A DNA stretch of 64,000 nucleotides from an uncultured Candidatus Saccharimonas sp. GTDB lineage: Bacteria; Patescibacteriota; Saccharimonadia; Saccharimonadales; AQU-01. Positions 1,923-50,668 of this stretch are shown piece after piece; positions within the stretch are counted from its first letter, which is position 1, and each line of letters opens with the position of its first letter. Under the pieces are notes generated by a model. That model saw only the letters and a list, made by a program, of their open reading frames with translations, ran no database searches and was not told the origin of the DNA. The stretch spans positions 6,169-70,168 of the forward strand of contig CALRGT010000003.1 in assembly GCA_943358095.1 (NCBI GenBank), read 5' to 3'. Made by a program: the position numbers and the translations under genes.

Positions 1923-2687
1923 ATGGGTACATTAATAACAATTTTGGTAGTTGGATTATTTATTATTCTAGTAAATAGTGTAAGGATTATTAATCAGTAC
2001 GAGCGTGGTGTTGTTTTTCGCCTTGGTAAAGTTCAGGGTGATATTAAGCAGCCCGGCCTAAGATTAATTATCCCAATTATCGACCAAATGCGTAAAGTCC
2101 CACTACGTACAATTACTCTGCCGATCGAAACACAAAAAATTATCACAAAAGACAATGTTTCGATCGATGTTTCGGCTGTTGCTTATTACCAAGTAGCAGA
2201 TCCAATTAAATCAATTGTTGAGATCGAGAATGTTGTTTCGGCAACTTATCAGATCGCTCAGACTACCGTGCGTAATGTTGTTGGCCAGTCAACTATGGAT
2301 AATGTGTTGAGTGAAACTACGGAATTGAACGAAAAAGTTAAGTCTATTTTGGATATAGCTACCGAAAAATGGGGTATATATGTTAGCAATGTTGAGCTAA
2401 AGGACATCCAGCTACCTGAAAGCATGCAGCGAGCTATGGCCAAACAAGCTGAAGCAGAGCGTGAAAAACGTGCAAAAATTATTGCTGCTGAAGGTGAAGC
2501 CCTAAGTGCTGCCAAGTTAGGTGAAGCAGCTGATATCATCAGCGCTCACCCAATTGCATTGCAACTTCGTAATCTCCAGGTTCTTAGTGAAATTGCGGTC
2601 GAAAAGAACTCAACTATCATTTTCCCAAGTCAATTCATGGACACAGTCTCAAGCGTCAAAGAATTCATGGCCAAAGAGACTAAGTAA
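1923..2687 (+). CDS. SPFH/band-7 (stomatin-like, slipin) family protein
   Basis: N-terminal TM helix. Motifs [31 protein letters not shown] and a C-terminal [12 protein letters not shown] coiled region typical of the stomatin/HflK-C family. Confidence 0.9.
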
Positions 2688-2688
2688 A

Positions 2689-3015
2689 GTGTCAGATTCT
2701 AAAACATTAAAAGAATATCAAAAACAAGTCGACGACCAATTGCAGCCTTATTTAAAACCATATTGGGATCCGCTCAGTAACATGGCCAGGCTTACGGAAG
2801 AGGCGGGGGAAGTAGCAAGAATACTCAATCATCAATTTGGCGATAAGCCCAAGAAAGATAATGAAGAGCATGAGGATCTTGCTGACGAGCTCGCCGACAT
2901 TATCTATACGGTCATTTGTTTGGCTAATAGCCAGGGCATAGAACTTGACCCAGCACTAGAAAGGGCGATAGCAAAACTAGAGACAAGAGATGCTGGTAGA
3001 TTTGCTAAGAAGTAG
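2689..3015 (+). CDS. MazG-type nucleotide pyrophosphohydrolase domain protein
   Basis: GTG start 2 nt after the SPFH stop, in frame with ORF 2521-3015. EEAGEVARIL ... ELADIIYTVICLAN is the MazG EExxE/ExxD helix pair. Confidence 0.8.
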   Translation: MSDSKTLKEYQKQVDDQLQPYLKPYWDPLSNMARLTEEAGEVARILNHQFGDKPKKDNEEHEDLADELADIIYTVICLANSQGIELDPALERAIAKLETRDAGRFAKK

Positions 3016-3066
3016 TAAACTTGAAAAACCCCCTGTTTTCAAGTAGAATACTCTGGTTACTAGCGT

Positions 3067-3142
3067 GGCTCTTTAGCTCAGTTGGTAGAGCAGGGGCCTG
3101 AAGAGCCCTGTGTCCCCAGTTCGAGTCTGGGAGGAGCCACCA
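3067..3142 (+). tRNA. tRNA-Phe(GAA)
   Basis: Acceptor GGCTCTT/AGGAGCC. Anticodon stem GGGGC/GCCCT with loop CTGAAGA. T-loop TTCGAGT, encoded ACCA. Confidence 0.95.
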
Positions 3143-3152
3143 AAGTAAAAGT

Positions 3153-3180
3153 CTCAGCCGTAAGGCTGGGGCTTTTTCTT
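3153..3180 (+). terminator. intrinsic terminator after tRNA-Phe
   Basis: Hairpin CTCAGCC-gtaa-GGCTGGG followed by CTTTTTCTTT. Confidence 0.75.
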
Positions 3181-3322
3181 TGGCCTAGGCTTTGCCTAGG
3201 GACTCGAACTGCTACAGTTCGCTAATTCACTGAAAAGTAAGTTTCTTTTCAGTGAATTATATCCTGAGACCGAGTCGCATCGTGCGACGCGGCTCGAGGG
3301 AGTATTCTGGGAGGAGCCTCCA
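3181..3322 (+). repeat. tRNA-Phe-derived trailer (inverted + direct self-fragments)
   Basis: GACTCGAACTG (3201-3211) is the exact reverse complement of the tRNA-Phe T-loop region CAGTTCGAGTC, followed by a direct CAGTTCG. A 14-bp hairpin carries CTGAAAAG (compare anticodon loop CTGAAGAG). It ends with TCTGGGAGGAGCCtCCA versus tRNA TCTGGGAGGAGCCaCCA. Confidence 0.6.
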
Positions 3323-3331
3323 ATAAAAACA

Positions 3332-3613
3332 TTAGTCTAGATGCTTAAAATTACGCGTTAACAGCCAAAGCATACAAAGTCCAAGAAGTCCGGTGAGTAT
3401 ATCTGTTAAGTAAGAGGAATCAACCGGCAATAACCTATCTAAAATATTCCAGGACGCACGCCAAAATAACACTGTTGCTATTGCGATGCCGATATAATGC
3501 ACTTGTCCAAGTTTTCGCTTCTTCATCAACCCATCATAATCGTTTATGTCTTTTAAGTCTATTGCCTTAGTGTTTGTTTGTGCACTTGTCTCTGTAGTTA
3601 CATTTTGATACAA
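3332..3613 (-). CDS. small membrane protein, unknown function
   Basis: 93-aa ORF with two C-terminal hydrophobic helices. No family recognised. Confidence 0.5.
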   Translation of the reverse strand: MYQNVTTETSAQTNTKAIDLKDINDYDGLMKKRKLGQVHYIGIAIATVLFWRASWNILDRLLPVDSSYLTDILTGLLGLCMLWLLTRNFKHLD

Positions 3614-3629
3614 TCTCTTGAGTAAACAT

Positions 3630-3706
3630 GCGGGTGTAGCTCAGTTGTTTAGAGCGCGTCCTTGCCAAGGACGAGGCCAAGGGTTAGAGTCCCTTTACCC
3701 GCACCA
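3630..3706 (+). tRNA. tRNA-Gly(GCC)
   Basis: Acceptor GCGGGTG/TACCCGC. Anticodon stem CGTCC/GGACG with loop TTGCCAA. Unusual D-loop AGTTGTTTA and T-loop TTAGAGT. Encoded ACCA. Confidence 0.9.
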
Positions 3707-3715
3707 AAATTAGAG

Positions 3716-3741
3716 CCCCACGAAAGTGGGGTTTTAATTTT
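3716..3741 (+). terminator. intrinsic terminator after tRNA-Gly
   Basis: Hairpin CCCCAC-gaaa-GTGGGG followed by TTTTAATTTT. Confidence 0.75.
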
Positions 3742-3750
3742 GGTTTGAGA

Positions 3751-3843
3751 TTCTAACCCTTGGCCTCGTCAAAATCAAATAATAGGCCAAGTGTCTTCCT
3801 CGACCGCCTACGGTCGAGGCGTTAGAGTCCCTTTACCCCTAAC
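3751..3843 (+). repeat. tRNA-Gly-derived trailer (inverted + direct self-fragments)
   Basis: TTCTAACCCTTGGCCTCGTC (3751-3770) is the reverse complement of tRNA-Gly GACGAGGCCAAGGGTTAGAg (19/20). Then a direct AGGCCAAG, an inserted 8-bp hairpin CCTCGACC/GGTCGAGG, and GTTAGAGTCCCTTTACCC, 18/18 identical to the tRNA 3' part. Confidence 0.65.
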
Positions 3844-4017
3844 TAGAAATTTGATTTATCGCGTCGATGCTAGTATTTACGATGAGTCAAAAGTAGTCGT
3901 GCCTGGCTGTTTAACTCGCGACCTTATTGAGGGCTAGCTCTAGGTAACCCGTTGATTTATTAACAAGTGTAATTTATAATTACGCTAAAGGTAATTGGTT
4001 TTATAGGGTTTGAGGGG

Positions 4018-5703
4018 ATGAGGATAGCTTTAATGCAGAGATTTAGAACTATATTGTCTAAATTGGCGCTGTTAAGTGCGGCGTTGATAATAAGTGGTGC
4101 TCCTAGAGCATTTGCTTTGGTTGGCCCGCACTCATTTACCAATACCGAAACTGGCGATGTTTATTTGGGCGGCGACTACATAGAGCTTGGTATAAGTAAA
4201 CCTGGATCATTCGGAACTACTCTCGGTACAATTCCCACAGGTTTTTTTGGAACCTCTATAGTTAGTGTCGGCATGACTACTAATCCATCTGGATTGGGTG
4301 AGACTCCTAACTTGATTATGGATTACTTTTTACCAGGCTCGCCAGAAGAGCGTTGGGTAGTTGGATATAAAGAGAATGGAACGCCTGCAATTGGCTCTAA
4401 CAGCCTACTTATGAATAATTTATATAATAATAGCCTAGATATGCCAGACAACGTTGTGACTAATCAATCGACAGGAGATCTACTAAAGGCCACGAGTCTT
4501 GGTACGCTAAACAACAAACTACAGACAACGCAGGTTATATCTTTTAACCGTGCGGATAAGTATTTTAGAAATCAGGTAACCTTAAAGAATGTGGGTGTCG
4601 CATCCATAGACAGCGTACGTTTTATGCGTAATTTTGACCCTGATAATACTGTTTTTCAGGGCGGAAGTTACACTACTCACAATACAATACCGTTCACCCA
4701 AGAAGCCGGTGACGGTAAGGCAGTAGTTATTGCTGATACTAACCGACCAGGACTAGTCGACCCGGTTAAAGCAGTGAACGGCTCAGACTCACCAATAATG
4801 TTTTATAGTAGTGATTCCCGAGCAAGAGTTTCAATATACGGGTTTAGTAACAAGAATCCCTATCAGGCACAAGCATATGATGAGGCGCTACCGAAAGGAA
4901 CTGTTATTGTTGGTGACTTATCCGTTACTATAACTTTTGATGTCGGAACGTTGGCTCCAGGTGCATCCGAGACAGTAGTTTACTATACTAGCCTCGATAA
5001 CCGTGATTTCACAGAAGTTGTAGCCGCGATCGAGAGTAATGATAGCGACAACATCGAAAAAGCAGTAGAAGATGCAGCACCAAATAACGGTGATAGTAAC
5101 GGCGATGGCATAGCTGACAGTACGCAGGATAGCGTCGCAGCTTTTCCAAACAGCGTGGTTGGAGGCGGCGCCTACCAGACGCTCACTAGTAGCGGTGACT
5201 GTTCTACTGTCAAAGAGGTTAGCGGTGGTGCAGTAGAAACATTTGGCGTAGATAGCTCATACAAGTACCCGCTCGGCCTCGCTAGCTTTACTTTAGCTTG
5301 TGCTAATCCTGGTGGAACAGCACATATAAAAATATTTTATGACAAGGTATATGATACGACTGCCTGGAAGGCTAGAAAATTTGTCAAAGGTTCGTTTATC
5401 GACATTCCTGGGGCCGTTTTTGGAGCTGCTGACGTTGGCTCCACAAAGGTGACTACTTTGTCTTACGATGTCACTGATGGTGGGATCCTAGATTCAGATG
5501 GATTAACAGATGGCGTAATCATAGATCCAGCGGGTCCTGCGCAACTTAAATTAACCGCACCCAACACTGGTTTTTATAACGATCAATCTGGGCTAAAGGC
5601 TTTGATGACAGGACTATCTTTACTTACTGCTGGAGTCTTGAGTTTGTGGTTTATTGGTAGACAGCACGCTCGATTCCTCGGCGACAGCTCAGACATTAAA
5701 TAG
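4018..5703 (+). CDS. secreted cell-surface protein with LPXTG-like (APNTG) C-terminal sorting signal
   Basis: N-terminal signal peptide ending APRAFA. Acidic D/G-rich repeat (NNGDSNGDGIADS). C-terminus is APNTG + hydrophobic helix + RQHAR tail. Confidence 0.7.
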   Translation: MRIALMQRFRTILSKLALLSAALIISGAPRAFALVGPHSFTNTETGDVYLGGDYIELGISKPGSFGTTLGTIPTGFFGTSIVSVGMTTNPSGLGETPNLIMDYFLPGSPEERWVVGYKENGTPAIGSNSLLMNNLYNNSLDMPDNVVTNQSTGDLLKATSLGTLNNKLQTTQVISFNRADKYFRNQVTLKNVGVASIDSVRFMRNFDPDNTVFQGGSYTTHNTIPFTQEAGDGKAVVIADTNRPGLVDPVKAVNGSDSPIMFYSSDSRARVSIYGFSNKNPYQAQAYDEALPKGTVIVGDLSVTITFDVGTLAPGASETVVYYTSLDNRDFTEVVAAIESNDSDNIEKAVEDAAPNNGDSNGDGIADSTQDSVAAFPNSVVGGGAYQTLTSSGDCSTVKEVSGGAVETFGVDSSYKYPLGLASFTLACANPGGTAHIKIFYDKVYDTTAWKARKFVKGSFIDIPGAVFGAADVGSTKVTTLSYDVTDGGILDSDGLTDGVIIDPAGPAQLKLTAPNTGFYNDQSGLKALMTGLSLLTAGVLSLWFIGRQHARFLGDSSDIK

Positions 5704-18045: not shown

Positions 18046-18142
18046 GCTTTAAATGAATAGTATCTCGTGCGCTCTGCGGCGCGTGAAATAAAAACAACCA
18101 AAACAAAAAAAACCACCCGCCGCGGGTGGGCGCGCACGAATT

Positions 18143-18173
18143 ATAAAAACCCTATCAAGTATAGGGTTTTTAT
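18143..18173. terminator. bidirectional hairpin terminator
   Basis: Stem AAAAACCCTAT / ATAGGGTTTTT, loop CAAGT. A second GC-rich hairpin CCACCCG/CGGGTGG (18113-18129) with an A-run lies just upstream. Confidence 0.7.
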
Positions 18174-18176
18174 AAT

Positions 18177-18270
18177 GATGGAGGCACAGAGACAGCCCAC
18201 TTCAATCCGAGCCCTAGCGCCAAGCTGAAGCTTGTCGCGGTCCAGGGCTCGAAGCTCAATAACTTGACCA
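18177..18270 (-). repeat. tRNA-Ala-derived trailer (inverted + direct self-fragments)
   Basis: In tRNA sense: CTTCGAGCCCTGGACC is antisense to tRNA GGTCCAGGGTTCGAG. It is followed by a direct AGGGCTCG and CTGTGCCTCCATCA (tRNA has CTGTAGCTCCACCA). Confidence 0.6.
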
Positions 18271-18298
18271 AAATAAAAACCCATCCTTATGGGATGGG
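18271..18298 (-). terminator. intrinsic terminator after tRNA-Ala
   Basis: On the minus strand, CCCATCC-cataa-GGATGGG followed by TTTTTATTTT. Confidence 0.75.
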
Positions 18299-18307
18299 AT
18301 CTTATTT

Positions 18308-18384
18308 TGGTGGAGCTACAGGGACTCGAACCCTGGACCTCTTCACTGCCAGCGAAGCGCTCTAGCCAACTGAGCTACAGCCCC
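18308..18384 (-). tRNA. tRNA-Ala(GGC)
   Basis: Reverse complement reads GGGGCTG...TAGCTCC-ACCA with G3:U70. Anticodon stem CTTCG/TGAAG with loop CTGGCAG. T-loop TTCGAGT. Confidence 0.95.
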
Positions 18385-25877: not shown

Positions 25878-26097
25878 GCCACTTTTGATTCGGCAAAAGT
25901 GGCGCAAAACCGAGGGGCGGTGGCCACAACTCGATATAGCTTCCTAACAAGGAGCACAACACAGCCTGCGGAACTAGCTGCTTCGCAGCGTCAGACAGTC
26001 CTCGGCAGGAAGTGTTGTTGTGCTCTTGTAGGAATCTATCTCGGGTTGCACCCAGGCCCCACATAAGCCCATGGATGCCCGCTGGAGGCGGGCTATT
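25878..26097 (+). ncRNA. candidate structured RNA / palindromic repeat element, copy 1 (unclassified)
   Basis: 10-bp hairpin GCCACTTTTG/CAAAAGTGGC, then a long imperfect rod helix. Ends in terminator GCCCGC-tggag-GCGGGC + TATT. Paralogous to complement(28400..28621) with paired substitutions. Confidence 0.45.
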
Positions 26098-27546: not shown

Positions 27547-27554
27547 CCCTTCCT

Positions 27555-27580
27555 GCCACTTTTGCCGAATCAAAAGTGGC
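27555..27580. repeat. third copy of the 26-nt hairpin GCCACTTTTG-6 nt-CAAAAGTGGC
   Basis: Same hairpin as at 25878-25903 and 28596-28621. Here it sits immediately upstream of the heliorhodopsin -35 box. Confidence 0.8.
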
Positions 27581-27674
27581 ATAATCACGATAAGCTTATC
27601 AGGAAAAGGCGCTTGTCATATTAAGCAGAAGTATTCTAGCCTTTTGCCCGTAATGAATGCTCTATTATTTCTAA

Positions 27675-28401: not shown

Positions 28402-28621
28402 AAAATAGCCCGCCTCCAGCGGGCATCCATGGTCTTATGTGGGGCCTGGACGCGACCCGAAATAGATTCCTACAAAAAGACAACAAACTACTCCCCGAGG
28501 ACTGTTTGAAGTCCGATAGGACAAGTTCCGGAGGGCGTGTTGTCCTTTTTGTTAGGAAGCTATATCGAGTTGTGGCCACTGCCCCTCGGTTTTGCGCCAC
28601 TTTTGCCGAATCAAAAGTGGC
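28400..28621 (-). ncRNA. candidate structured RNA / palindromic repeat element, copy 2 (unclassified)
   Basis: The reverse complement aligns over its full length with 25878-26097: the first 73 nt have 1 difference, the last 72 nt about 5, and the central 75 nt are diverged but still fold. Minus-strand terminator + TTTTTT at 28400-28424. Confidence 0.45.
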
Positions 28622-49402: not shown

Positions 49403-49494
49403 AAAATATAAAGAGTGTAGCGAGGGTTCTAGCCCAATGACCTACCGGCAACCTACTAATTAATAGCAAGGTGCTCCATCTAGTCCGTAGTTAT
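49403..49494 (+). promoter_or_regulatory. SAM-I-type riboswitch aptamer upstream of metK
   Basis: The conserved core is readable: AAGAG-tgtagc-GAGGG-ttct-AGCCC-aatGA-cctaCCGGCAACC-...-GGTGCT. The P4 region looks short. Confidence 0.75.
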
Positions 49495-49495
49495 T

Positions 49496-50668
49496 ATGGA
49501 AACGATATTTTGCCAAAACATATCCTTTCCATATATTCACGGGGAAGGATATTTTATTTCAAACTCTACAAAAACAACACTATTTACTAGTGAATCAGTT
49601 GCCGCAGGGCATCCAGACAAAATCTGTGACGCCATAAGTGATGCAATTCTTGACGCAGCCTTAGCGCAAGATCCAAAAACGAGAGCCGGTATTGAGGCGG
49701 TTGCTGGCGCAAATCAGATCAGCCTATTTGGTGAAATTACCACTACCGCCAAACTAGACTATGAGGCGATTGTTCGAGAAGTTATTAAATCTCAAGGTTA
49801 CATTGAGCCAAAGTGGGGCTTTTCTGAAGAGTCAAAGTTCACAAGTTATTTACATCAACAATCGCCAGAGATATCGCAGGGCGTTGACCAAGATGGGGCT
49901 GGCGATCAAGGAATGATGTTTGGTTATGCCTGTAACGAAACCCCAGAACTTATGCCGATGCCGATTACTTTGGCACATGCTTTAGCGCGTAGAATCGACG
50001 AAGTCCGTCAGAAAAAAATACTCGATTATATCCGACCCGACGGCAAGGCGCAGGTTACTGTCGTCTACGAAGATGGCATACCTACTGCTATAGCTAACGC
50101 CGTTATTGCAGTAGCACATTCCGAGCAAGTTAGCGCCGATCAAGTTCGTGCTGGAGTTATTGCTGAGATTATTACCCCAGTTTTAGCTAAATATGGCTTC
50201 ACAGTGAGCGACGAAAATATAACTGTAAATGGCACAGGCTTATGGCATATACCAGGTCCAGAATCAGACGCAGGATTAACTGGTAGAAAAATTGTAGTAG
50301 ATACATATGGTGGTTACGCTCGTGTTGGAGGAGGCGCCTTTAGCGGTAAAGATCCGAGCAAGGTGGACCGTTCTGGCGCTTATGCGGCACGATATATTGC
50401 TAAAAATATTGTTGCTGCCGGTCTAGCGGATAAATGTGAGGTTGGTCTGGCATATGTAATTGGTAAGCCGAATCCTTTAATGCAAACAATTGAAACATTT
50501 GGAACTAGTAAAGTTTCTGACAAAGAACTTTACGACTTCAAAGATAAATTGATAGATACTTCGGTACGAGGAATAGTCGAAAAATTGCAGCTACTTAGGC
50601 CGATTTATTCTGCGACAAGCGCATATGGACATTTTGGTAAGCCAGAATTGCCGTGGGAGCAGGGGTAG
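49496..50668 (+). CDS. metK: S-adenosylmethionine synthetase
   Basis: LFTSESVAAGHPDKICD, GAGDQGMMFGYA and GGGAFSGKDPSKVDRS motifs. The ORF-track ATG 49496 lies inside the riboswitch platform. The conserved N-terminus is better served by ATT at 49556 (see findings). Confidence 0.95.
   Translation: METIFCQNISFPYIHGEGYFISNSTKTTLFTSESVAAGHPDKICDAISDAILDAALAQDPKTRAGIEAVAGANQISLFGEITTTAKLDYEAIVREVIKSQGYIEPKWGFSEESKFTSYLHQQSPEISQGVDQDGAGDQGMMFGYACNETPELMPMPITLAHALARRIDEVRQKKILDYIRPDGKAQVTVVYEDGIPTAIANAVIAVAHSEQVSADQVRAGVIAEIITPVLAKYGFTVSDENITVNGTGLWHIPGPESDAGLTGRKIVVDTYGGYARVGGGAFSGKDPSKVDRSGAYAARYIAKNIVAAGLADKCEVGLAYVIGKPNPLMQTIETFGTSKVSDKELYDFKDKLIDTSVRGIVEKLQLLRPIYSATSAYGHFGKPELPWEQG
49520..49559 (+). 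terminator. riboswitch expression-platform hairpin (terminator/SD sequestrator)
   Basis: 11-bp stem ATATCCTTTCC / GGGAAGGATAT followed by TTTTATTT. The 3' arm contains the GGAAGGA Shine-Dalgarno. Confidence 0.7.

Follow-up and report, generated by a model that had tools for sequence, protein, structure and literature searches.

Cis-mobilizable elements (CIMEs) at the sites of streptococcal ICEs (integrative and conjugative elements) represent remnants flanked by attachment (att) sites that contain no recombination genes, and they are kilobase-sized products of decay. The attC sites of integrons and the attP(+) hairpin of CTXphi recombine as folded single strands, tandem inversion duplications and quasi-palindrome template-switch mutations are known from Salmonella and E. 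coli, and the 3′ external transcribed spacer (3′ETS) RNAs of tRNAs can regulate, as in the case of the 3′ETS-leuZ sponge of E. coli. For islands that target tRNA genes, a regenerated tRNA gene together with a displaced fragment is named as the accepted mark of integration, and tandem arrays and non-autonomous remnants as standard, in two published accounts (PMC4383910; PMC9897764). Here, we analyzed the trailer behind the tRNA-Gly gene in a stretch of 64,000 nucleotides (referred to as the window) from contig CALRGT010000003.1 of an uncultured Candidatus Saccharimonas sp. The trailer is probably the footprint of a small (~140 bp), non-coding DNA unit that was inserted by recombination into the tRNA-Gly gene, a reading that we hold with moderate confidence.

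Similar to the islands and prophages that are located in tRNA genes and listed in the Islander and TIGER catalogues, the unit leaves an intact tRNA with its 3′ part repeated downstream, the repeat begins in the T loop, which is a classical crossover sublocation, and the relatives hold empty and occupied alleles, tandem units and larger recombinase islands at the same tRNA. Unlike those islands, the unit measures only 138–205 bp, has no gene and hence no integrase, contains, behind a terminator of its own, the attachment region in an inverted copy and carries structured hairpin inserts at the crossover. It resembles the CIMEs in being non-autonomous, in the att-like repeats that bound it at a site of autonomous elements and in its accretion beside larger islands, but it contains a palindromic arm that CIMEs do not have, and any mobilization in trans would be putative here. 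In addition to the repeats and the relation between insertion and empty site, recurrence at other tRNA genes and in a second genus, a variable cargo and neighboring islands were observed.

Layout of the tRNA-Gly trailer and its sister units in the window

The tRNA-Gly(GCC) gene (3630–3706, + strand) is intact with the CCA encoded, as detected by ARAGORN and by the tRNA model of Rfam (67.8 bits). One genome per species was scanned with the variable-loop and T-arm sequence of this gene, which yielded 33 loci, all of them in genome bins of Saccharibacteria (TM7, Patescibacteria), and the sequence of the gene is identical at 33 of the 33. The first copy of the direct repeat (3683–3700, +) lies inside this functional gene and consists of the T loop, the 3′ strand of the T stem and the 3′ strand of the acceptor stem. 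It is followed by terminator 1 (3703–3744), a 19-bp imperfect palindrome (ACCAAAATTAGAGCCCCAC / GTGGGGTTTTAATTTTGGT) with a T-rich run at its end, which takes in the ACCA of the tRNA and looks like a two-way intrinsic terminator. The stem of this terminator varies across the relatives with compensatory changes, and four different stems were found. Terminator 1 is at the same time the tip of an imperfect palindrome of ~100 nt that is centered on the terminator loop and has its arms at 3670–3721 and 3726–3770.

The outer part of this long palindrome is the antisense arm GATTCTAACCCTTGGCCTCGTC (S′, a′; 3749–3770, +), a stretch of 22 nt that is the reverse complement of 3670–3691 at 21 of 22 positions (95%) and covers the 3′ strand of the anticodon stem, the variable loop, the 5′ strand of the T stem and the T loop. 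An earlier note on this DNA had described the arm as a 20-mer complementary to tRNA-Gly at 19 positions, which was confirmed, the full antisense copy being slightly longer. A 13-nt, A/T-rich spacer follows (AAAATCAAATAAT, segment R; 3771–3783, +), after which the direct sequence resumes, as the same note had stated, with AGGCCAAG (a-left; 3784–3791, +), a direct copy of the variable loop and the T-stem 5′ strand that equals 3674–3681 and pairs with 3759–3766. The hairpin described there as the next part is indeed present, with a perfect stem of 9 bp in place of the 8 bp that had been counted (CCTCGACCG/CGGTCGAGG, loop CCTA; 3798–3819, +). This hairpin, P3, is located at the exact T-stem/T-loop boundary of the displaced tRNA-Gly copy, and its 3′ strand together with the following bases (CGGTCGAGGCGTTAGAG) resembles GAGGCCAAGGGTTAGAG of tRNA-Gly. 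The second copy of the direct repeat (b-right, GTTAGAGTCCCTTTACCC; 3821–3838, +) is identical to 3683–3700 at 18 of 18 positions, again as claimed, and ends after TACCC in the window. The same trailer structure was found in independent ENA, JGI and NCBI assemblies, so it is not an assembly artefact.

Chance is excluded for these copies of tRNA-Gly, since dinucleotide shuffles of the window, with up to three mismatches allowed, gave none with two 18-mer matches and none with any 20-mer match, and the antisense and direct scores of the real trailer were each reached by 0 of its 1000 shuffled versions. The footprint by which islands are recognized, an intact tRNA-Gly with a direct repeat of its 3′ part downstream, is present in the window (p < 0.001).

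Trailers with Gly-like parts, each made from the sequence of its own tRNA, were also detected behind three other tRNA genes of the window. The unit behind tRNA-Val (gene 1567–1643, +; unit 1644–1870, +) contains terminator 1 (1649–1673) and then a structured body, after which come a 19-nt direct copy of the tRNA 3′ end with CCA (1814–1832) and terminator 2 (1832–1870). The unit behind tRNA-Phe (gene 3067–3142, +; unit 3143–3322, +) consists of a terminator (3147–3177), an antisense arm (3188–3211), CAGTTCG (3215–3221), an 84-nt insert with two hairpins (3222–3305) and, from 3306, a direct copy of 13–17 nt, TCTGGGAGGAGCC(TCCA). Behind tRNA-Ala (gene 18308–18384, −; unit 18140–18307, −), a terminator (18267–18308), an antisense arm (18239–18254), a hairpin (18217–18238), AGGGCTCG (18208–18215), a degenerate 3′-end copy (18176–18192) and terminator 2 (18140–18176) were found. 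The trailers of Val, Phe and Ala all have a terminator whose palindrome extends into the CCA as well as one or more hairpins; the antisense copy of the T-arm region is present in Phe and Ala and weak in Val, and the short direct copy of the T-stem 5′ side is present in Phe and Ala.

The antisense and direct copy scores were tested against 1000 shuffles of each tRNA trailer. Both are significant for Gly (p < 0.001 each) and for Phe (antisense p = 0.001, direct p < 0.001), the antisense score alone is significant for Ala (p = 0.002) and the direct score alone for Val (p < 0.001), and no significant antisense or direct copy was obtained for the trailers of Leu, Cys and Gln in the window. Eight of the 17 perfect hairpins of at least 8 bp in the 64 kb fall in the trailers of Val, Phe, Gly and Ala.

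Displaced 3′ ends, empty sites and tandem units in relatives

Further loci were obtained from a metagenome scan with the antisense arm and spacer (L034–L038), from contigs encoding homologues of the Band_7 gene that is situated between the Val and Phe genes of the window (L051–L089), and from the loci of cargo-gene homologues (L090–L095). The downstream copy is complete to ...TTTACCCGCACCA (...TACCCGCACCA) with the GCACCA end in L020, L030, L036–L038, L051, L057 and L090, this end being mutated to GCAACA in L051 and L057, and the direct copy is therefore the complete displaced 3′ end of tRNA-Gly. The displaced fragment with its original end and flank is found in these relatives, and the copy of the window is truncated: GCACCA and terminator 2 are replaced by CTAACTAGAAATTTG... 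and downstream genes, the same state was observed in L035, and the loss after TACCC is due to a later event.

A second terminator follows the displaced copy in L020, L030, L036, L051 and L057. It bears no relation to terminator 1, which marks the unit as foreign DNA rather than the product of a local duplication. At the empty sites L005 and L018, tRNA-Gly is followed directly by AGCATAAGCATTATGACCTC and a hairpin, and at the occupied sites L057 and L051 it is followed by a 146-bp unit, the displaced 3′ end and then the same terminator as in L005 and L018. The alignment of the empty L005 and L018 with the occupied L057 gave precise boundaries at the repeats, which shows the unit to be a clean insertion whose boundaries are formed by a 24-nt repeat of the tRNA 3′ part. 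The Band_7 protein of L057 and L051 is 100% identical to that of the window, and these were taken as the same species. The tRNA-Gly site is polymorphic within one species, and among the 33 species loci with the identical tRNA-Gly only about one in four has the unit beside the tRNA; such a patchy, polymorphic distribution is typical of accessory DNA.

From the order of the parts and the empty site, we infer that the event was a site-specific recombination with its crossover at the T-stem/T-loop boundary of tRNA-Gly. A circle with contiguous AGGCCAAG-GTTAGAG...CCA-terminator-antisense arm-cargo would have been opened inside one arm of the long palindromic attachment region, where AGGCCAAG meets GTTAGAG, and its ends would have been linked to the tRNA gene at that same position. 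The unit would thereby supply the replacement 3′ part of the tRNA from the T loop to the CCA (3683 onward, a-right) and would also bring terminator 1, the antisense arm, a short spacer and the AGGCCAAG copy of the sequence left of the crossover, and the original 3′ part of tRNA-Gly would be pushed downstream, where it is seen as the direct copy. Such a joining accounts exactly for the order of the parts on the chromosome, which begins with the tRNA as far as the T stem, continues with the unit (the stretch from the T loop through the CCA, the tip of the terminator, the antisense arm, the spacer or its cargo, and AGGCCAAG) and closes with the displaced stretch from T loop to CCA and terminator 2, and the expected circular junction would be AGGCCAAG-(P3)-GTTAGAGTCCCTTTACCCGCACCA-terminator 1. 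Hairpin P3, at the crossover, would be either a small insertion of later date or what is left of an older, collapsed unit. The antisense arm presumably arrived as part of the incoming unit, and the best reading of the palindromic attachment region is that it belongs to a small integrative unit.

Tandem units were observed at the other tRNA genes. At tRNA-Val, the parts are arranged as tRNA-terminator 2-V2-3′ end-terminator 3 in L002, as tRNA-terminator 1-V1-3′ end-terminator 2-V2... in L012 and as tRNA-terminator 1-V1-3′ end-terminator 2 in the window, with L002 and L012 displaying a presence/absence polymorphism with precise boundaries. At tRNA-Phe, the terminator/antisense types A and B are combined with inserts 1 and 2, namely A+1 in the window, A+2 in L012, B+1 in L003 and B+1+2 in tandem in L002. 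The combinations at Val and Phe read as the pattern of successive insertions at one site, the newest beside the tRNA, plus exchange between strains.

A replication error in situ could be proposed for the origin of the trailer, with snap-back at the terminator hairpin, reverse copying of the tRNA 3′ half and a forward switch (tandem inversion duplication or quasi-palindrome extension). As in the known tandem inversion duplications, three copies stand in the order sense-antisense-sense and a junction falls at a natural hairpin, the first junction being exactly at the terminator palindrome that runs into the ACCA/TGGT of the tRNA, and four tRNAs are affected, each with its own sequence. However, the third copy should then precede a copy of terminator 1, and in the relatives it has a different downstream flank, the unrelated terminator 2 that is found at the empty sites; moreover, foreign sequence and cargo genes lie inside the units, and tandem arrays and shuffled combinations bring together units whose bodies differ. 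We regard such an error as quite unlikely to have made the trailer, though it may still explain the origin of the antisense arm within the unit.

Larger islands were located at the same tRNA gene in the relatives. L020 contains, between tRNA-Gly and the unit, an island of 4.4 kb with a gene (736–2295, −) for a large serine recombinase of 519 aa. The last ~22 nt of this gene overlap the 3′ end of tRNA-Gly on the opposite strand, and the right junction of the island has ...CGCACCA, after which come terminator 1, the antisense arm and the remaining unit. Large serine recombinase genes adjoin tRNA-Gly in L019, L020 and L026, and partial (C-terminal) matches are found at the contig ends of L011 and L021. 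A related arrangement with adjoining large serine recombinase genes was observed at tRNA-Leu in L080–L085, where the gene of L080 (1094–2671, +) overlaps tRNA-Leu (2650–2736, −) by its last ~22 nt. The tRNA-overlapping serine recombinases range from 519 aa to 525 aa, and their elements appear to be the main autonomous tRNA-integrating elements of these genomes. Islands between tRNA-Gly and the unit are also present in L035, L038 and L051, with that of L051 measuring 2.5 kb and containing copper- and iron-related genes. The tRNA-Gly locus is thus an integration hot spot, and many assemblies break exactly there. The contigs of L052–L054, from independent assemblies, end within about 1 kb past the Band_7/MazG genes, at the tRNA-Phe/Gly region (3000–3900 of the window), which is consistent with strain-level heterogeneity there.

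The layout was also found in another genus (L067, L069 and L073), which has a different tRNA-Gly (T arm GAGAG TTTGAGT CTCTT) and tRNA-Phe (T loop TTCGACC). The Gly trailer of this genus contains the antisense AACTCTCGACCTC, then GAGGGAGAGAG, a structured insert and the displaced copy TGAGTCTCTTAAC(A/T)CGCACTA with a second terminator, the copy having AACACG in L073 and AATCCG in L069, and the antisense sequence of the Phe trailer is GGGTCGAACTGG. Since the layout is rebuilt there from the tRNA sequences of that genus itself, the process that makes the units is general in the phylum and not one accident.

The tRNA-Gly genes themselves differ at the elbow. In tRNA-Gly(GCC) of the window, U19-A56 replaces G19-C56 (D loop AGTTGTTTA with T19, T loop TTAGAGT with A56), and the tRNA-Gly of L069 and L073 has A19 (AGTTGATA) and T56 (TTTGAGT), in covariation with the U19-A56 of the window. 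The other seven tRNAs of the window have the usual GG / TTC.

Antisense arm, spacer cargo and signs of folding

The antisense arm is complementary to AGGCCAAG on the left of the putative crossover and to GTTAGA on the right of it, and it spans the start of the identity between the tRNA and the displaced copy. Its conservation in relatives, which the earlier note had put forward as a check, was found at 19/19 nt in L003, L012, L020, L051 and L059, loci that had been obtained independently of the arm; the arm is likewise 19/19 in L035–L038, which had been found using it, and L052 and L057 have a single A-to-G change that keeps a G.T/G.U pair. In units of the L030/L090 type, the antisense copy in the arm takes in nearly all of the 3′ half (GGGCTAAAGGGACTCTAAC...CGCCCTTGG), and in the window type the middle is decayed, with TTGAGAT instead of the antisense of CCTTTACCCGC.

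The spacer is a point of insertion or deletion, as L037 and L034 have there a 1.34-kb segment that is enclosed by AAAATCAAA and TCAAATAAT, each junction showing ATCAAA. This cargo contains a gene of 429 aa with a prepilin-type N-terminus (12329–13618 in L037 and 1501–2790 in L090–L093), and the encoded protein has 12 relatives in 5.8 billion proteins. In L090–L093, the cargo gene is located directly before TCAAATAAT-AGGCCAAG-P3-3′ end with an L030-type unit as its left neighbor, and the more distant homologues in L094 and L095 lie in ordinary contexts. The inverted arms (3749–3770 versus 3784–3791 plus 3821–3829) might serve a host recombinase of a resident system as sites for inversion or exchange of the segment between them, for example in a swap of pilin-like genes. 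The pilin-like gene is flanked by inverted repeats in L037 and L034, and in the window, L003 and L037 the genes that lie downstream of the unit encode secreted or pilin-like proteins. Yet the inverted orientation of the segment was seen in no locus, the same gene has a different left neighbor in L090–L093, no invertase was found nearby and most units have only 3–17 nt between the arms, and we consider such a resident system highly improbable.

The inserts of the units show changes that are compatible with folding. The stem of P3 is kept through a C-G to A-T double change in L036 and as a shorter stem in L020, and three C-to-T changes in L037 give G.U pairs on the tRNA strand only; these pairs were read by eye, and MAFFT shifts the P3 stem of L036 and L020 by one column. 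The first helix of a second insert, which occupies this position in relatives (the TGAGA element described below), has four covarying pairs, with wobble pairs on the tRNA strand only. These changes are suggestive of a tRNA strand that folds, as RNA or as single-stranded DNA, and of folding that matters, and the tRNA-identical parts could alternatively be kept by gene conversion with the tRNA.

The TGAGA element is a conserved element of ~75–105 nt (UGAGA-hairpin-UYGCAAGG-hairpin-CGGGG-hairpin) without a match in Rfam, and it always occurs inside tRNA pseudo-copies, in the T loop or after position 25. It was located in L001 (3906–4000), L015 (~4080–4170), L017 (1712–1800 and 4012–4100), L025 (~138–240), L031 (790–940) and the Gly trailers of L069 and L073. 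Another insert family, Phe-ins (...GTCGGTGAAGCGA...CTGAGCA...GCGATG), occurs in the T loop of tRNA-Phe pseudo-copies, with upstream copies in L006 (1291–1440), L020 (309–470) and L021 (6558–6720) and downstream copies in L017, L031, L067 and L073. The pseudo-copies of L006, L020 and L021 contain the full 5′ part (positions 1–57) and lie about 130 nt upstream of the real tRNA-Phe.

The earlier note had further suggested a three-way-junction-like pairing between the antisense and direct copies, or alternatively a pairing of the antisense copy with tRNA-Gly or its precursor, and both structures form in silico. The junction (3745–3845 folded as RNA) has −36.4 kcal/mol and z = −5.6, and in a hypothetical read-through transcript the fold in which the antisense arm invades the tRNA 3′ half is predicted at −102.9 kcal/mol, versus −85.6 for cloverleaf, terminator and junction, so that a read-through RNA would prefer the arm paired to the 3′ half of tRNA-Gly by about 17 kcal/mol. 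These predictions would suit a functional RNA, in which read-through of terminator 1 yields a three-way-junction trailer that would switch tRNA-Gly output or subject it to quality control, the arm either pairing with the precursor, whose maturation is diverted or which is marked for a double-strand-specific RNase, or being held by the direct copy. The 19/19 conservation of the arm where it is present, the P3 stem kept by compensatory change and by tRNA-strand-only G.U pairs, the covarying pairs of the related insert elements and the second terminator after the unit in relatives also favor it, and the unit resembles the 3′ETS RNAs in lying in a tRNA trailer with base-pairing potential. Unlike those RNAs, it lies past the terminator, is complementary to its own tRNA, and is accessory and polymorphic. 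Most species with the identical tRNA lack the unit and empty sites exist, the unit varies within one species, and a 1.3-kb gene can occupy the loop; in L051 and L020 the unit lies 2.5–4.4 kb from the tRNA, and cis pairing with the precursor is thus not conserved. Furthermore, the unit stands behind a strong terminator hairpin with a T run, with no evident promoter between terminator and arm, there is no Rfam match, and the conserved parts are the tRNA-identical ones, which gene conversion could maintain. Overall, such an RNA seems unlikely to us, and nothing points to a regulatory role of the trailer; the comparative data account for its pieces as DNA-level insertion products.

Several other candidates were rejected. 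A search for known RNA families with Rfam 15, at the gathering score and at E ≤ 10 for the trailers of the window and at E ≤ 1 for six relatives, returned only tRNAs, and the trailers gave no Rfam match with an E-value < 0.05 or at the gathering score. ARAGORN revealed no second tRNA, tmRNA or split tRNA on either strand, the minus-strand reading having no acceptor stem. A minus-strand promoter, TTGATT-17-TAGAAT (3778–3750), is created by the single mismatch, and it was taken as chance, its -10 box not being kept in L012 and L020. The hammerhead core CTGATGAG of L020 stands alone, without the remaining elements of such a core.

Attachment, putative mobility and meaning of the units

Similar to the attC sites and the CTXphi hairpin, the unit contains a foldable imperfect inverted repeat across the crossover (3749–3770 versus 3784–3791 plus 3821–3829), which, when folded, would rebuild the target duplex there; stretches of the stem are unpaired, and the inserts keep their structure while their sequence varies. 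The units are also small, sometimes contain one gene and occur in tandem, as integron cassettes do. Opposed AAC...GTT triplets were observed in the Gly and Phe units: judged by eye against the attC cores RYYYAAC / GTTRRRY, the TTCTAAC and GTTAGAG of the Gly unit each fit at only 6/7 positions, the Phe unit contains CGAAC/GTTCG, and the Ala unit contains GCTCG, has no GTT and does not fit the consensus. Unlike these systems, the target is a tRNA gene and single-strand recombination of the unit would be hypothetical, and no IntI/Xer-type tyrosine recombinase was found in the ORFs tested, the genome scan not being exhaustive.

As a special case of the footprint reading, the units might be mini-cassettes that target tRNA genes and whose attachment site acts as a folded hairpin, in single-stranded DNA or in RNA, an idea that is tentative and, in our estimate, unlikely. 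The antisense arm would then rebuild a duplex copy of the T arm across the crossover, and such cassettes would stack behind tRNA-Gly, -Phe, -Val and -Ala, sometimes carrying a gene (the pilin-like gene of L037/L090), and would host conserved structured inserts (P3, TGAGA, Phe-ins) that covary and are in no RNA family database. More generally, three roles or origins of the inverted arm are possible: by analogy with folded sites, it may let the site fold into a duplex when single-stranded, it may have arisen by template switching at the terminator hairpin, or it may be a second binding site for a recombinase.

Several observations weigh against an insertion by recombination. The unit of the window (138 bp) has no ORF and no integrase, no recombinase was found by Pfam among the 10 window ORFs of 275–340 aa in a scan that was not exhaustive, and tblastn of the window with the serine recombinase and the Y1 transposase of relatives gave no match, serine recombinases being found only in other, larger islands of the relatives. 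The searches turned up neither an excised or circular form nor a copy in viral contigs. Known elements that integrate into tRNA genes usually do not have an inverted copy of their own attachment site, and the literature search found no direct precedent for this part of the model or for an arm folding into a duplex at tRNA genes. All units are small, ranging from 138 bp to 205 bp, which is odd for random decay of larger islands. The antisense arm is unchanged (0/19 nt) in lineages with different terminator 1 stems, and the stem changes in total comprise eight that are wobble-compatible on the tRNA strand versus one A.C. This is a hint of selection for folding, something that a dead scar would not show. 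The element need not serve the tRNA today.

A phage or plasmid origin was rejected, since viral contigs scanned with sequences of the unit returned either 0 hits or 12 that are due to chance and do not extend. The antisense arm was also considered as a half-site of a serine recombinase, and the arms of the window, 57 bp apart around the terminator, are too far from each other for a 40–50-bp site; an 11-nt inverted repeat stands right at the tRNA end in the island of L020. An IS200/IS605 or REP-type element was likewise dismissed, as the Y1 transposase beside the L020 unit has no homologue in the window or the other loci and was taken as a coincidence. This gene (L020 5303–5917, −) encodes an IS200-like, RAYT-like Y1 transposase of 204 aa and lies about 40 nt past the second terminator of the Gly unit.

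Elsewhere in the window, the palindrome (T)GCCACTTTTG-CCGAAT/ATTCGG-CAAAAGTGGC(A) is present in three copies (25878–25903, 27554–27581 and 28596–28621), perhaps as an operator or a small family of repeats. Upstream of the ORF 49496–50668 lies an ordinary SAM riboswitch (57.9 bits; 49403–49511). The mechanical starts of the ORFs 2521–3015 and 4018–5703 are too long, the public calls being 108 aa (MazG-like) and 556 aa (a secreted protein; 561 aa in the ORF), respectively.

If the footprint reading holds, the trailer is a well-preserved case of tRNA genes in very small genomes gathering layers of inserted DNA, and annotators would be warned to take the hairpins and tRNA-like fragments found behind the tRNA genes of these bacteria for products of recombination and not for regulators. 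The tiny, gene-less units, the inversion of their own attachment region and the single layout at four tRNAs and in two genera go beyond the ordinary, and these features point to a defined insertion mechanism in a phylum whose mobile elements are poorly known. If the idea of hairpin cassettes were true, the units would constitute a gene-capture system at tRNA genes, and if the arms act as a folded site, hairpin-based recombination, as in integrons and a few phages, would be extended to tRNA targets.

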